DNA from: Dictyostelium discoideum
Lineage: Eukaryota
Length of the DNA: 3,905 bases
Assembly (NCBI GenBank): GCA_000004695.1
Contig: CH709169.1
Coordinates: forward strand, 1-3,905
Reading direction: 5' to 3'
The position numbers and the translations under genes are program-made. How positions within the stretch are numbered: the stretch's first letter is position 1; each line of letters begins with the position of its first letter. Of this stretch, positions 1 to 3,905 are shown in pieces. The notes beneath the pieces are model-generated. The model made no database searches and was not told the origin of the DNA. It saw only the letters and a list, made by a program, of their open reading frames with translations.

Positions 1-136
1 TGAATCTTGTAAAGGCTAAGGAAAGGTTGTTGATTTGATCCTCCATTGATTTCATTCTTAAATCAAAGGATTCAGCGCTATTAGAGACAGAGGTACTACT
101 ACTAGAGGCATCATTATTATTAACAGTGGTAGACAT
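1..136 (-). CDS. 5' end (N-terminal 45 codons) of a host protein-coding gene that continues beyond the window start; Asn/Ser-rich low-complexity N-terminus (MSTTVNNNDASSSSTSVSNSAESFDLRMKSMEDQINNLSLAFTRF...)
   Basis: The reverse complement of 1-136 is an open frame starting with ATG at 136..134 and running off the window. The poly-N/poly-S composition and A/T-rich codons are typical of Dictyostelium-type genes. Immediately upstream (137-250) is an extremely AT-rich promoter-like tract. It is not in the ORF track because it is open-ended. Confidence 0.45.
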   Translation of the reverse strand, partial: MSTTVNNNDASSSSTSVSNSAESFDLRMKSMEDQINNLSLAFTRF

Positions 137-223
137 ATTTTATTGTTGATATCTAAAATTATAATATGAGAAAAATAATAATATTAAAAATTAATAAAGA
201 GAAATAATTATTTGTATAAAATT

Positions 224-236
224 TGTGTGTGTGTGT
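224..236. repeat. (TG)6 dinucleotide microsatellite
   Basis: tgtgtgtgtgtgt read directly at 224-236. Confidence 0.9.
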
Positions 237-349
237 ATCTTAAATATATATAGGAGGAATTCCCAAATAAAATAAATTGTTTTAGTTTTTGTGCCACTAT
301 TTATACGTTTTTATTTTCTTAAAAATTTCGCAAAACTCAAAAAAATAAG

Positions 350-453
350 AGTTTTCGACCCTTCACAACTTTGTGCATAGTGTCGGTTCGGAATTTTTCA
401 GTTTTTCGACCTTACACAATGATCGCGTCATTGTGCCGGTTCGAAATTTTTAC
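350..453. repeat. Two tandem ~50-54 bp units (350-399, 400-453). Each has an internal inverted repeat and ends in GGTTCG(G/A)AATTTTT. A degenerate third copy may lie at 454-475.
   Basis: Unit A is agttttcgacccttcacaactttgtgcatagtgtcggttcggaatttttc and unit B is agtttttcgaccttacacaatgatcgcgtcattgtgccggttcgaaatttttac. Unit B contains a perfect 8-bp stem, cacaatga (415-422) / tcattgtg (428-435), around a tcgcg loop. Its outer arms tttcgacc / ggttcgaaa are also near-complementary. Unit A has cacaa/ttgtg. Confidence 0.7.
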
Positions 454-481
454 TTTTCTTTCGAAAATTTTTTTATTCTTC

Positions 482-499
482 GAATGTTCTAGAACATTC
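482..499. promoter_or_regulatory. Perfect 18-bp palindrome gaatgttctagaacattc. It equals four contiguous, correctly phased nGAAn/nTTCn units (GAAtgTTCtaGAAcaTTC), i.e. a canonical heat-shock-element (HSF-binding) architecture.
   Basis: Read directly from the sequence. The 5-bp unit phasing is exact. An extra TTC at 479-481 and TTCGAA at 460-465 give more GAA/TTC density nearby. It lies ~345 bp upstream of the minus-strand ATG at 136. HSEs act in either orientation. Confidence 0.5.
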
Positions 500-552
500 T
501 AAAAAATTATCTTAAATATTTGGGAAATTCAAATAAATAAATGTTATTCATA

Positions 553-568
553 ATATATATATATATAT
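553..568. repeat. (AT)8 dinucleotide microsatellite. It sits immediately left of the composition change into the foreign block.
   Basis: atatatatatatatat read directly at 553-568. Confidence 0.9.
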
Positions 569-579
569 GATAATATAAA

Positions 580-660
580 TCTATCTGGAATCGATAGCTT
601 ATTGGGCTTCCCACCTAGTTTTTTTGCTTTCTCTTCTACCTCTGATAAAATAGATACCAT
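580..660 (-). pseudogene. Short truncated minus-strand ORF fragment (MVSILSEVEEKAKKLGGKPNKLSIPDRF...). Its reading frame runs out of the foreign block into the (AT)n tract, so any real gene here is cut by the left junction.
   Basis: ATG at 660..658. An in-frame stop lies just upstream (691-693 on the + strand), so it cannot be longer. It shares the 14-mer acctctgataaaat, encoding ILSEV, with the 791-997 ORF. There is no convincing RBS. Confidence 0.2.
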
Positions 661-790
661 CTTCTCAAAGGTAGGGCGTTTAATCCCTATTTAACGGCAA
701 AATGACTCCTCATTCATCACGAACTTGATTCGACAGAATAATAACAATTTATATAAGGTTATGCAAGTCTATAGTTGAAATGTAGTTTTT

Positions 791-997
791 TCAGCGCTTG
801 CAAACATGCTGAGTGTCCATAAGCCAAGTAAAATGATTCACCTCTGATAAAATCTGTTTTTCAATATAGTGTGGTAATAGCCTGTTGGCTGTCGTATGCG
901 CTTGATCTTTATGGATAGATGTTTTGTCAATATCCAGCTGCAGCTTCTGAAAATAACAAGAAGATATTAAACACATCATGATAGCGATCAATGGCAT
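791..997 (-). CDS. Hypothetical small protein, 68 aa, with a hydrophobic N-terminus (MPLIAIMMCLISSCYF...). Prokaryote-like codon mix. Not recognised.
   Basis: This is the ORF-track entry. It has complete start and stop codons, and the maximal open frame is 75 codons. It lies inside the about-45%-GC block. It contains the 14-mer at 840-853 that is repeated at 638-651. No strong SD is visible upstream (agaaaaag only). Confidence 0.35.
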   Translation of the reverse strand: MPLIAIMMCLISSCYFQKLQLDIDKTSIHKDQAHTTANRLLPHYIEKQILSEVNHFTWLMDTQHVCKR

Positions 998-1062
998 TGT
1001 GACTTTTTCTAAGCGATGTTATGCATATGCTGATTTTTTACAGGTGTTATTCATAGGATACT

Positions 1063-1071
1063 TGATATAAT
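1063..1071 (+). promoter_or_regulatory. Extended -10 promoter element TGaTATAAT (sigma70-type), oriented toward the downstream + strand ORFs.
   Basis: ttgatataat read at 1062-1071: TG at 1063-1064, one spacer nucleotide, then TATAAT at 1066-1071. A second TATAAT lies at 1102-1107. No good -35 is present, which is acceptable for extended -10 promoters. A chance TATAAT is possible. Confidence 0.3.
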
Positions 1072-1127
1072 AGCTGGTGAGTGGTCGTTTCGTATATGCT
1101 CTATAATGGCTTACATACACCAATCCC

Positions 1128-1763
1128 ATGGTATCGGTATTGTTGTTGCAACACCTACACTGGCGTGGTCTAAGAAACCAACTCTGGTTAATATCTGAGA
1201 TAGTGTCTAATCCAGATAACAACGTCACCATTGAGCAATACGGTGTACCGAATACCACAGCAGCTTTGTATGAAGCACATAAGTTCCTTTATCTGAACGC
1301 ATGTCCTGGTTCAGTGCTACAACCAGATCGTGATGATCGCGATGAACTGCGTAAACAGGTAGCTTCCGCTATTATCTTCCTCAATACCAACACTCATCTG
1401 TACAATGCACTTCGCGTCACTGGTGAGTTCGAAATTTCTGAGCGCACTATTGAGTGGGTTCGTATGTTGGCCGATGATGGCATTATTGTATCTGGCTTCT
1501 CAACGGTGATTACCAAAAACCGTACCGTTGACAATATCCCTTTAGATACAGCGGCTAGTTCAAAAGATGTATTCGTCAAAGAATTCGAGACGGGCACTTA
1601 CCTCAACATCAAAACACCGGTTGCTGACAAAATCGGAACCCCCAGGAAATGCGGATTACATGAAGGCCTACGTCGGGGAATAATACATGAGCGATACAGA
1701 CATCATGAAGAGTATCGCCCAAGCCGGCGCAACTCCTTTAAAAGTAAACCACTTCAGTTTTAA
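1128..1763 (+). CDS. Hypothetical protein, 211 codons as an open frame. Prokaryote/phage-like codon usage. Probably damaged: the likely authentic C-terminus is ...VADKIGTPGNADYMKAYVGE*, ending at TAA 1681-1683, reached through a 1-nt slip in the C5 run at 1639-1643. The first ~25 codons look non-protein-like, so the true start may lie in another frame. Not recognised.
   Basis: This is the ORF-track entry. The core 1200-1630 has well-formed codons (ctg cgt aaa cag gta gct tcc gct att atc...). After 1644 the current frame switches to rare codons (agg, gga, cta, cgg, ata, cga, aga). The alternative frame gives a clean end followed by an SD and an ATG. Frame 2 upstream (1070-1198) reads ...MAYIHQSHGIGIVVATPTLAWSKKPTLVNI* and may be the real N-terminal part, joined through a second slip near 1196. 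Confidence 0.45.
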   Translation: MVSVLLLQHLHWRGLRNQLWLISEIVSNPDNNVTIEQYGVPNTTAALYEAHKFLYLNACPGSVLQPDRDDRDELRKQVASAIIFLNTNTHLYNALRVTGEFEISERTIEWVRMLADDGIIVSGFSTVITKNRTVDNIPLDTAASSKDVFVKEFETGTYLNIKTPVADKIGTPRKCGLHEGLRRGIIHERYRHHEEYRPSRRNSFKSKPLQF

Positions 1764-1809
1764 CAATAAGTTCATGGTTCATCGTATTACTCATCTCATT
1801 ATTACATAG
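1687..1809 (+). CDS. N-terminal fragment of the next operon gene (MSDTDIMKSIAQAGATPLKVNHFSF...), truncated by the right junction of the foreign block. The in-window stop at 1807-1809 is probably a junction artefact.
   Basis: GGGGAA at 1675-1680 lies 6 nt before ATG 1687. That ATG sits 3 nt after TAA 1681-1683 in the same frame, a classic tightly packed bacterial/phage gene junction. Codons are atg agc gat aca gac atc atg aag agt atc gcc caa gcc ggc gca. Composition decays to AT-rich after about 1740. Confidence 0.3.
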   Translation: MSDTDIMKSIAQAGATPLKVNHFSFNNKFMVHRITHLIIT

Positions 1810-1876
1810 TACTGGTACAAGTGATACTGCTCTCATTCCGACTCTCAAATGTTTAATCGTTCCAAACAGAGAAAAC

Positions 1877-2146
1877 ATGGATAAACCCAAGATTATAATT
1901 AACTCTCATTCCAAAGAAAAACAATTCAAATTAATTCTCGATACTGGAAGTAATGTTAGTTTAATCAATAAGAGGTTGATTTCAAAAGATATGAAGAACC
2001 ACGTTCACAAAACGAAAGCCAAGATTAACTTCCCGCTACTAGACGTCAAAGAAGAGTTTGTTGAACAAATCAATATACAAGTTAACAATGAAATTCATAA
2101 CTTCTTTATTATAGAATTGGATATCATTGATGTACTTTTCGGATAA
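1877..2146 (+). pseudogene. pol fragment: retroviral-type aspartic protease domain.
   Basis: This is the ORF-track entry. It reads KIIINSHSKEKQFKLILDTGSNVSLINKRL ... DIIDVLFG (the conserved ...ILG(M)D(W)L region), then a stop. The frame stays open upstream to 1748 with no CCHC gag knuckle. Confidence 0.75.
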
Positions 2147-2543
2147 TGATATCCTTAAGGACTCTATCATTAACCAAAAAGATAAAATAATCAAGTTGAA
2201 TAACAGTACATACAAAATTAATTATCAAGAGTCGAATCAATTACATTGTAATGTAAAAGCTCCAAGAAAACATGTTACCGTATCCAATGATAATCAGTCA
2301 CAGTCACATAATCTACTAGATGATGATGAAGATATCAAAGAACAAGTTACAAAGTTTGTTGAAAGCATCCCATCACAACTTTGTGATATACTGGTTAAAA
2401 CTAATCCAGAAGAAGAAGAGATACAAGCAGTACGTGATTTCATTAATGATTCATTCGAAGATGTTATAGTAGATAAAATCCTGATATTCCAGATCAGATT
2501 AACAATTCCAGAAGAGGTAATATCATACATAATATCATTATAA
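2127..2543 (+). pseudogene. pol fragment: PR-RT linker region, frameshifted relative to both neighbours.
   Basis: This is the ORF-track entry. It continues the protease C-terminus (NDILKDSIINQKDKIIKL...) after a +1 slip near 2140-2150. It is acidic and low-complexity. Its last ~20 codons overlap the frame-2 start of RT (open from 2477). Confidence 0.5.
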
Positions 2544-3438
2544 AGAAAGATCAAGATGTTGAACCAACAAAGAAACAAATCTATTACTCAACAGATGATC
2601 ATAAGAGACATGTCGAAGAAATGGTTATCAAATTTATAGATTTAGGTATTATCAAAAGATCAGAATCAAATTACTCATCTCCAATCATGTTATTAAAGAA
2701 GAGGATTCATGGCGTGTAGTCCACGACTATCGTCAACTAAATAAAGTCACTATTAGAGACGATCATCCATTCACTCCGGTTGATAGTCTTTTAAATCAAT
2801 GTAAAGATTCAAAGCTTTTCTCAAAGTTTGACATGATTATGGGTTATTTCCAAGTGTTAATTAATCCAGAACACGCAAAGTACACCGCTTTCATTACACA
2901 TATTGGTAAATTTGAATATACTAGAATGCCACAAGGTTTAGTCAACTCTCCATCCACATTCGCCAGATTGATGGTCGAAATATTTGGAAAAATCAAAAGT
3001 TTATTACAATACTTTGATGATCTTTTGGTTCATTCAAAACTCGACTACATGGTACATTTCATTGAAATCATTAGAATGCTTCTATATTGTAGAAAGTACC
3101 TATTATTCATTTCAAGAGAAAAGAGTGAAATGTTAAAGACTGAAGTTGATTTCCTTGGTTTTCACATTCATAAAGATGGTATATCTCCAAGAGCTGCAAA
3201 GGTTAGAGCTATCTCTGAGTTACCTGAACCAAGAAACGCCAAAGAAGCTGAAGCTGCATTAGGTCTTTTTGGATTCTTCAGGAGACACATTGAAAATTAC
3301 GCTGAAAAAACCTATCACCTTTCCAAAGAATCAAAAGGAAAAAACAAGAAAACACTTTCTGATGAATCACTCAAAGAATTCAATAATCTAAAGAAAGAGT
3401 TTGAAGGTGAAAATATTGTCGCTATTCCAATGGGATGA
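2477..3438 (+). pseudogene. pol fragment: reverse transcriptase domain. Frame 2 covers 2477-2716, then frame 1 runs to 3438 (1-nt deletion near 2690-2705). Ends in a stop.
   Basis: Frame 2 reads ...VEPTKKQIYYSTDDHKRHVEEMVIKFIDLGIIKRSESNYSSPIMLLKK, then hits a TAG at 2717-2719. Frame 1 reads EEDSWRVVHDYRQLNKVTIRDDHPFTPVDSLL...FSKFDMIMGYFQV...YFDDLLVHS...FLGFHIHKDGISP...LGLFGFFRRHI... These match gypsy RT blocks (SP..SP...KK.DG.WR.C.DYR.LN..T, Y..DD, F.G.). The ORF-track entry 2833..3438 is its tail. Confidence 0.85.
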
Positions 3439-3469
3439 ATCGTTTTTAAATAAAATTAAGGAAGAATAA

Positions 3470-3905
3470 ATCAATTCTCAATGGCTATTAGAGATGAAAA
3501 AGAATCCAAATTTATGCATTGAAGAAATTAATGATATCTGTTACCTTAGTGAAGATGGGTTCAAGAAATTAATCATCATAGATAAAGAAACTATTCATAC
3601 CGTCATTAGAGAATATCACGATACCAAATATAGTGGTCATCACGCTTTAGATATCACATACAATAATATAAGACAAGATTACTATTTCAAAGAAATGTTT
3701 TCTATTATCAAGAGGTACATAAAGTCTTGTGCAACATGTCAATTGAACATTAACCGTAAAGATAATGGTATACTCCAAAGTTTAGAAATTCCCTTTGAAG
3801 TTTGGAGAGATATATCAATCGATTTCTTATTGCTACCAAAAACAATGTATGCAATAAACGGATTTACAGTTGAAGTCGATCAAGTTTGTGTCATTGTTTG
3901 TAGAT
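3470..3905 (+). pseudogene. pol fragment: integrase N-terminal HHCC zinc-binding domain and the start of the catalytic core. Open to the window end. There is no Met, so it is absent from the ORF track.
   Basis: Frame 2 is open from 3470 to the window edge: ...KLIIIDKETIHTVIREYHDTKYSGHHALDITYNNIRQDYYFKEMFSIIKRYIKSCATCQLNINRKDNGILQSLEIPFEVWRDISIDFLLLPKTMYAINGFTVEVDQVCVIVC. It matches the gypsy IN pattern YHD..GH.G..T...I...YYW..M...V..YV..C..CQ.NK.....G.LQPL.IP...W..IS.DF. Confidence 0.8.

Follow-up and report, generated by a model that had tools for sequence, protein, structure and literature searches.

Probable fossil of bacterial DNA, carrying an insertion sequence interrupted by DIRS-1, among the retrotransposons of Dictyostelium discoideum

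Introduction

How did about 1.2 kb of DNA resembling bacterial genes come to lie between retrotransposon sequences of an amoeba? This question is raised by contig CH709169.1 of the Dictyostelium discoideum assembly GCA_000004695.1, of which we analysed positions 1 to 3,905 (forward strand), a stretch of 3,905 nucleotides referred to here as the window. An initial annotation, made from the letters of the window, had described positions 576-1760 as an enterobacterial or phage-like block. The analysis presented here makes it likely that the block is part of an old, decayed piece of bacterial DNA integrated among D. discoideum retrotransposons, with an intracellular bacterium as the most likely donor. 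The evidence centres on a bacterial insertion sequence (IS), the first part of which lies in the window, and on a complete copy of the retrotransposon DIRS-1 that interrupts it.

Results

The block is foreign to the transposon cluster in which it lies

The whole window aligned at 99.87% identity to D. discoideum CM142509.1 (assembly GCA_054883475.1), a 6.43-Mb chromosome, at positions 8874-12778 of a locus 63-85 kb from one end, called L004 below; the amoeba host presumed in the initial annotation was thus borne out. DIRS-1 clusters, acting as centromeres, are located at the chromosome ends of D. discoideum (PMC12745789; for centromere composition, see PMC2665215), and L004 has the matching position. 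As judged from its sequence, the window is a transposon cluster. In blastn comparisons, several DIRS-1 copies aligned with window 1-579 at 90-97% identity, and each of the alignments stopped at 579; because several copies share ...GATAATATAAA up to this position and then diverge, it is a natural DIRS-1 terminus. On the other side, window 1796-3905 had 92-95% identity to long terminal repeat (LTR) retrotransposon copies in L001-L003, which are D. discoideum loci fetched around three proteins related to the reverse transcriptase (RT) of the window. We call this element (window ~1788-3905) Skipper-like, after the Dictyostelium repeat literature. The DIRS-1 ends in the fetched loci were 90-91% identical to window 1-579. 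Because the copies of both elements diverge at the edges of the block and have no similarity to it, the block belongs neither to DIRS-1 nor to Skipper; its true edges are at 579/580 on the left and ~1787/1788, the onset of Skipper-like homology, on the right, instead of the 576 and 1760 first proposed.

A fossil insertion sequence occupies the left part of the block and continues beyond DIRS-1

The minus strand of positions 580-717 encodes MNEESFCR followed by a stop codon and IGIKRPTFEKMVSILSEVEEKAKKLGGKPNKLSIPDR, and these 46 residues were 51% identical to a Chlamydiae protein (P0055; E = 5e-14, BLASTP). In L004, a segment of 664 bp (3970-4633) that lies beyond a complete DIRS-1 again matched neither DIRS-1 nor Skipper, and its minus-strand translation contained the fragments YRTYFHVASNYGISESACYRNIKWVE, VLIDAT, HTLKTQVVVDKKSRKVICTAF and YRNRRKRFGLRFNLIAG. 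Minus-strand window 580-775 and these 664 bp together read as one bacterial IS of the IS5 family (ISL2 type). The composite transposase, repaired for frameshifts (267 amino acids), scored 176.8 bits against the NCBIfam equivalog NF033581 transpos_IS5_4 (cutoff 140) and matched the Pfam families PF13613 (1.3e-13), PF13359 (4e-16) and PF01609 (2.7e-13), corresponding to HTH_Tnp_4 plus DDE_Tnp_4/DDE_Tnp_1. The initial annotation had recognised none of the encoded proteins, which stands for most of the cargo, but the left 196 bp (minus strand) are the N terminus and inverted repeat of an IS5/ISL2 transposase element.

Alignment of the DNA with bacterial copies (L005-L008) placed the ends of the IS. 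The two ends of the bacterial copies read AGAGCTCTTGCATAACC and GGTTATGCAAGAGCTCT, and the left inverted repeat of the amoeba copy, on the minus strand at 758-775, is TATAGACTTGCATAACC, compared to TAGAGCTCTTGCATAACC in the bacterial copies; since TATAGACTTGCATAACC is kept there, the IS ends at ~775/776. At its right end, which is only weakly recognisable, the IS stops ~14 bp short of the point (L004 3969/3970) where a DIRS-1 fragment joins; its length is ~846 bp after several deletions. The GC content of the IS was 34.2%, against 35.7-37.1% in the bacterial copies. No target-site duplication of the IS could be called in this alignment, the ends being too degenerate.

The transposase is a fossil member of the IS5 family (ISL2 type), neither intact nor active: it has three in-frame stops, several indels of 1-8 nt, two in-frame deletions and a lost stop codon, about ten disruptions in all. 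One shift, in a poly-A tract, may by analogy be a programmed -1 frameshift, which has been described for ISCaa3 (PMC3196728).

A complete DIRS-1 lies inside the transposase gene

The DIRS-1 between the two parts of the IS is complete (4,819 bp, L004 4634-9452), and DIRS-1 gene models carry RVT_1, RNaseH and Phage_integrase (tyrosine recombinase) domains. When it was removed in silico, the transposase sequence rejoined in frame as ...CCA GAT AGA/TTA TTA ATA ACT..., encoding ...KLSIPDR/LLITLEYLN (slashes, point of rejoining), and the bacterial homologues have ...KLSIADRLLMTLEYL at this site, a residue-for-residue match with none lost or gained. This shows that a full-length DIRS-1 integrated into the transposase gene after the arrival of the bacterial DNA, with no loss or duplication of target bases, and it is because DIRS-1 integrated there that the window holds merely the first 46 transposase codons.

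Comparison of the window with L004 revealed five differences, all in the Skipper-like RT. The block itself was identical, and therefore a second assembly reproduces the arrangement of the block and its flanks. In the 6.43-Mb chromosome, the DIRS-1 fragment (L004 up to 3969) lies on one side of the foreign DNA and the Skipper-like element (window from 1788) on the other. With host sequence on both sides and a DIRS-1 inside the bacterial open reading frame (ORF), the foreign DNA is very probably a genuine nuclear integrant.

The remainder of the block holds orphan reading frames

An orphan gene at 1106-1683 was read as frame 2 (1106-1195), frame 3 (1194-1640) and frame 1 (1639-1683), so that it probably contains two 1-nt frameshifts, near 1195 and at a C5 run near 1640. 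Its GC content was 44.6%, with a GC content at third codon positions (GC3) of 0.42. A second ORF begins with the ATG at 1687, 3 nt past the stop codon TAA at 1681-1683; this spacing had been taken as operon-like in the initial annotation and is present as described, but only when the long ORF is read through a frameshift. A stop-free run of 218 codons in the block was equalled in 1 of 5000 Markov shuffles and is longer than expected by chance.

In an exhaustive HMMER search of 1.84 billion cluster representatives, the sole match of ORF 1128-1763 was D. discoideum's own gene model P0053 (KAM9948566.1, 691 amino acids, 'hypothetical protein ACTFIT_009764'), which spans L004 10001-12311 and hence window 1128-3438. 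The model joins the orphan ORF to the Skipper protease and RT by way of predicted introns, and it is almost certainly a gene-prediction artefact that splices across unrelated sequences. A word-indexed search of 5.8 billion proteins gave no match for the orphan ORF, a weak negative: the search missed the 99%-identical P0053 in the same collection, and therefore a negative from it cannot be read as exhaustive. When viral, bacterial-genome and metagenome contigs were scanned by back-translation, the orphan protein had no match there, and the exact products of the window ORFs were not on record in look-ups. Against Pfam, PHROGs, NCBIfam and PADLOC, the block ORFs matched no family (a YueH match was non-significant, E = 0.11); Rfam and tRNA scans were empty; and positions 776-1105 had no similarity to DIRS-1 or Skipper copies. 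An AlphaFold model of 1194-1640 from the single sequence had a predicted local distance difference test (pLDDT) score of 44.6, with no confident fold.

Base composition and codon use set the block apart from host genes

The step in GC content reported in the initial annotation is real, but less extreme than claimed: 22.8% at 137-575, 40.5% at 576-1760 and 31.1% at 1761-3905. To the left of the block, the AT-rich stretch corresponds to the terminal repeat of DIRS-1. Within the block, GC content was 44.6% at 1106-1760 and ~36% at 579-1105. The body of DIRS-1 has 40% GC, and therefore a value of ~40% is not exceptional in this neighbourhood.

Codon use of the orphan ORF is clearly foreign to the host. 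In its central 149 codons, GC at the first, second and third positions was 0.52, 0.38 and 0.42, and all seven arginines were encoded by CGT or CGC, whereas a neighbouring host gene had a GC3 of 0.15 and used AGA for 12 of 15 arginines. The fit to codon tables (log2 per codon) was -1.65 for E. coli, -1.67 for DIRS-1 ORFs, -1.73 for a Chlamydiae metagenome-assembled genome (MAG) and -2.27 for the host gene. The claim of enteric-type codon choice therefore holds as far as it says non-host, but the near-equal fit to E. coli, DIRS-1 and the Chlamydiae MAG means that codon use is not diagnostic of enteric bacteria. That the block is foreign and bacterial-like, as had been proposed, was supported. 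A promoter reading did not hold up: 3 sigma-70-like sites were found compared to 4.4 expected, which is the chance level, and the TATAAT at 1102-1107 overlaps the ATG at 1106.

Relatives of the transposase come from intracellular bacteria of several phyla

The composite transposase had 1,061 protein relatives at E ≤ 1e-20, the best of them 59-63% identical over the full length. The best relatives came from Chlamydiae MAGs, Babeliaceae/Dependentiae, Orientia, 'Ca. Fukatsuia', Amoebophilus (ISCaa3) and Neochlamydia, and further from Rickettsia, Holosporales, Legionella anisa, Wolbachia and a Rickettsiales MAG; those from Chlamydiae MAGs, at ~62% identity, were on a par with those from other phyla. 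A neighbour-joining (NJ) tree did not place the fossil within one phylum. Its sister in the tree was P0149 (EukProt 'gene163-217_t', 226 amino acids), found in 193 of 200 bootstraps and identical at 126 of 183 aligned residues. P0149, which has an internal gap resembling a spliced-over defect, may derive from symbiont contamination or be another fossil in a eukaryote.

The ISL2-group/ISCaa3 lineage is common to intracellular bacteria, for which amoebae have been proposed as a meeting place, an 'intracellular arena' (PMC3196728). The Chlamydiae of wild Dictyostelium clones have a GC content of 38-41% and 139-338 ISs (bioRxiv 10.1101/2024.11.01.621453), and complete chlamydial genomes have been obtained from Dictyostelium isolates (PMC12745789). 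Our best inference is that the donor was an intracellular, protist-associated bacterium.

The amoeba fossil was 60% identical to ISCaa3 of 'Candidatus Amoebophilus asiaticus' (914 bp, with a 275-amino-acid transposase; PMC3196728). With the IS5/ISL2 elements of intracellular bacteria it shares a similar size, the domain order HTH_Tnp_4 plus DDE_Tnp_4 and the motifs LIDAT, DTGYQG and YRNRRKRFGLRFNLIAG, and its left inverted repeat is conserved with Chlamydiae-type copies. Unlike those elements, it is single-copy in a eukaryotic chromosome, its sequence is broken by many stops, frameshifts and deletions as well as by a eukaryotic retroelement, and its right inverted repeat is barely recognisable.

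The flanking retroelements and the features of the window

The Skipper-like element encodes, in translation, a protease with the motif DTG, an RT with the motif YFDD and an integrase zinc finger, with several frameshifts, stops and internal deletions, and this content marks it as a gypsy-type element. Its RT was 83-98% identical to many D. discoideum 'hypothetical proteins' (RVT_1). The copies in L003 and L001 extend ~2 kb upstream of the point equivalent to window ~1788 with mutually similar gag/LTR sequence, to which the block had no blastn or tblastx similarity. Skipper gag and DIRS-1 were accordingly rejected as sources of the block, there being no collinearity or similarity with their copies. 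The copies also differ from each other: the spacing between RT and integrase is shorter in the window (3258-3425) than in L003 (10129-10491), and L003 is without the sequence of window 2421-2839, each copy being a deletion derivative in its own way. The five positions that distinguish the window from L004 all fall within 430 bp (2788-3217), the remaining 3.5 kb being identical; this clustering suggests gene conversion between repeat copies or assembly-polishing differences, not ordinary divergence.

A search for further foreign DNA to the right of the Skipper-like element in L004 gave repeats only. At L002 1643-2230 and L003 4835-6606, in other strains, gene fragments for a ribonucleotide-reductase small subunit and a methionine-synthase B12 domain adjoin DIRS-1/Skipper fragments; these were considered as extra foreign blocks and rejected, their translations looking like ordinary Dictyostelium by eye.

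At L004 ~1484-1540, the right end of one DIRS-1 directly abuts the left end of another (...GATAATATAAA/TTAAAAATTTAAT...), a two-copy layout that is head-to-tail or circle-junction-like. The DIRS-1 terminal repeat of the window contains a near-perfect palindrome at 476-505, TTCTTCGAATGTTCT/AGAACATTCTAAAAA, of GAA/TTC units resembling a heat-shock element, and a tandem motif pair at 352-368 and 403-419.

The coordinates of all features are given in Table 1.

Table 1. Features of the window, with the part of the insertion sequence that lies outside it
Feature	Position	Strand	Basis or remark
DIRS-1, terminal part (tyrosine-recombinase retrotransposon)	1..579	-	Context, not foreign DNA; blastn to other copies
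DIRS-1, start of first ORF	136->1	-	
DIRS-1, terminal repeat	137-579	-	
Foreign block	580 to ~1787	.	Matches neither DIRS-1 nor Skipper-like copies
IS5-family (ISL2-type) IS fossil, 5' 196 bp	580..775	-	DNA alignment with bacterial copies L005-L008
Transposase, first 46 codons, with one in-frame stop	580..717	-	DIRS-1 terminus directly follows the last codon
Left terminal inverted repeat of the IS	758..775	-	Alignment with L006, L007 and L005
Remainder of the IS, ~650 bp, outside the window	L004 ~3984-4633		Far side of DIRS-1
Putative donor DNA flanking the IS	776..1105	.	68-amino-acid minus-strand ORF at 791-997 and 108-bp spacer before the plus-strand genes
Orphan bacterial-type gene, ~190 codons	1106..1683	+	Frames, codon statistics, ORF length compared to shuffles
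Second orphan ORF, start (MSDTDIMKSIAQAGATPLKVNHF...)	1687..1787	+	Cut off at the junction with the Skipper-like element
Skipper-like Ty3/gypsy LTR retrotransposon, 5'-truncated, degenerate	~1788..3905	+	Context, not foreign DNA

Discussion

The reconstructed insert (L004 3970-4633 plus 9453-10660) comprises 1,872 bp: ~14 bp of flank, the ~846-bp IS, probably complete though decayed, and ~1 kb of adjoining donor DNA with its ORFs. Together these encode the transposase and one small ORF on the minus strand, an orphan gene of ~190 codons, and the start of a further gene. The type of DNA is bacterial, and on either side of the insert lies a retroelement broken within its own sequence, a DIRS-1 fragment on one side and a Skipper-like element on the other. 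It probably represents a genuine transfer of DNA from a bacterium to an amoeba, old and functionless. That the ORFs of 776-1787 are bacterial too is inferred from their base composition, codon use and close packing, and because they adjoin the IS directly.

A plausible sequence of events would begin with a fragment of a bacterial chromosome or plasmid, at least 1.9 kb long, being captured by end-joining where the centromeric repeat cluster had broken; this mode of entry is suggested because neither outer junction is a natural transposon end. The donor would have been an intracellular or amoeba-associated bacterium, as the IS lineage circulates in Chlamydiae, Dependentiae, Rickettsiales, Amoebophilus, Legionella and Wolbachia. 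The fragment may have decayed after capture, or the IS may already have been degraded in the donor. DIRS-1 would later have hit the fragment, without target duplication or deletion, and what is left today would be a functionless, decaying fossil.

Several findings weigh against this interpretation. The orphan gene is without any homologue, and therefore its bacterial origin rests on composition, codon use and its linkage to the IS. At only ~60-63% identity, and scattered across several phyla, the nearest IS relatives single out no donor. The transposase closest in the NJ tree comes from a eukaryote-derived data set, and therefore transfer from eukaryote to eukaryote, or by way of a shared symbiont, is a possible route. 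The right inverted repeat is weakly recognisable, with ~14 of 22 positions alike by eye (L004 ~3984-4005). The two assemblies may both stem from the NC4 laboratory lineage, and thus may not represent independent natural isolates. Finally, the orphan ORF has at most 2 disruptions in ~580 nt compared to ~10 in ~820 nt for the transposase, a milder decay that is mildly unexpected if both decayed together and that is weak evidence for selection.

One alternative, which the initial annotation had itself allowed for, is that food-bacterial, symbiont or cloning-host DNA was joined to the contig by a chimeric read or misassembly. Its foreign composition and codon use would fit such an origin, and the region is repeat-rich and prone to assembly error, with the five differences from L004 clustered in a repeat. 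However, a chimera would not leave the halves of a bacterial ORF on either side of a complete 4,819-bp DIRS-1, at its natural termini, so that they rejoin in frame; the block is identical in a second, chromosome-scale assembly; and the transposase is heavily pseudogenised. A contaminant is therefore scarcely credible here. Much the same very low probability attaches to the proposal that an enterobacterial or coliphage segment inserted very recently and brought in an operon of undescribed genes. The CGT/CGC arginines, the mid-range GC3, a fit to the E. coli table as good as any and a second gene starting 3 nt after a stop all speak for it, but the block matched none of 50,697 phage records, 72,556 plasmids and 5,426 complete E. 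coli genomes (megablast, blastn), the main ORF matched no phage or plasmid (tblastn), and PHROGs were likewise without similarity, so that no enterobacterial, coliphage or vector source could be upheld; nor does the absence of matches in E. coli, phages and plasmids favour contamination. The linked IS belongs to a lineage found in intracellular bacteria, the codon fit is equal for DIRS-1 and the Chlamydiae MAG, and the promoter-like sites are at chance level. The description 'very recent, not ameliorated' is contradicted by about ten disruptions in the transposase and by the later insertion of a host DIRS-1.

It is also conceivable, though quite unlikely, that the block is a native Dictyostelium mobile element, either the Skipper-like element's own gag/LTR region or a DNA transposon resident in the genome, of the IS5-related PIF/Harbinger type. 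The block is placed exactly where gag would be expected, upstream of the protease, and transposases of the IS5-type DDE_Tnp_4 kind have eukaryotic cousins, the NJ-closest relative being from a eukaryote data set. Other Skipper copies, however, have an unrelated, conserved gag/LTR upstream with an empty tblastx comparison to the block. The transposase passes the bacterial IS5 equivalog, and bacterial copies have a matching terminal repeat; among the best 120 transposase matches, in a database that has six annotated D. discoideum assemblies, there was no further D. discoideum protein, and the block was not found in ~55 kb of other Dictyostelium loci rich in transposable elements. The orphan gene at 1106-1683 might instead be a domesticated, expressed bacterial gene under selection, with the IS as the wreck of its vehicle. 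The open central 149 codons beside a transposase with about ten disruptions, the length of the ORF beyond chance and the gene model that covers it are in keeping with this idea, which we nevertheless consider improbable, given that the best reading needs two frameshifts, that the gene shows neither a eukaryotic promoter or intron signature nor amelioration to host codons, that the location is a centromeric repeat cluster with a gene model implausibly spliced onto the Skipper RT, and that neither a homologue nor a confident fold (pLDDT 44.6) was obtained. More speculatively, and with only a slim chance of being correct, a bacterial associate of D. discoideum that has never been sampled, and is perhaps extinct or intranuclear, might have left this insert as its sole trace. 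The orphan gene of the insert, still open over ~150-190 codons beside the collapsed transposase, may then be retained and expressed by the amoeba, in which case centromeric heterochromatin would harbour a working bacterial gene; or the centromeric DIRS clusters might be regular traps for symbiont DNA.

The interpretation as an old, decayed bacterial insert has precedents. Nuclear insertions of endosymbiont DNA are known in eukaryotes, for example from Wolbachia to insects and nematodes; like the insert described here, they are non-functional, decaying DNA that includes IS elements, often at repeat-rich sites and from an intracellular donor. Here, in contrast, the host is a social amoeba, the fragment is small (1.9 kb), and the insert is not tied to a living symbiont. 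The AX4 genome study reportedly listed bacterial gene transfers in D. discoideum that are functional and ameliorated. Those transfers share the host and the bacterial origin with our insert, but they are said to be expressed euchromatic genes of recognisable families, whereas the insert consists of a pseudogenised IS and orphan ORFs in a centromeric cluster.

Nested DIRS-1 insertions in Dictyostelium centromeres (PMC2665215) likewise involve full-length DIRS-1 without target duplication, in a telocentric cluster of DIRS and Skipper fragments. The target in the present case is bacterial DNA and not another DIRS-1 copy, and therefore the insertion site can be read to the base.

Bacterial DNA fossils in nuclei and ISL2-type ISs are already known, but this element and its location appear to be undescribed, and no description of this bacterial insert was found in the literature searched. 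The annotated D. discoideum protein KAM9948566.1 is flagged as a chimera of a bacterial ORF and a retrotransposon RT. Apparently no host function was added, and the importance of the insert is that of a dated footprint, not of a new mechanism. The later DIRS-1 hit provides a clean pair of empty and filled sites for DIRS-1 integration, with neither target duplication nor deletion. For the amoeba itself, the interrupted transposase gene amounts to base-level proof that bacterial DNA of an intracellular type entered and persisted in the nucleus of a model amoeba, one of the organisms proposed as the 'arena' in which intracellular bacteria exchange mobile elements.

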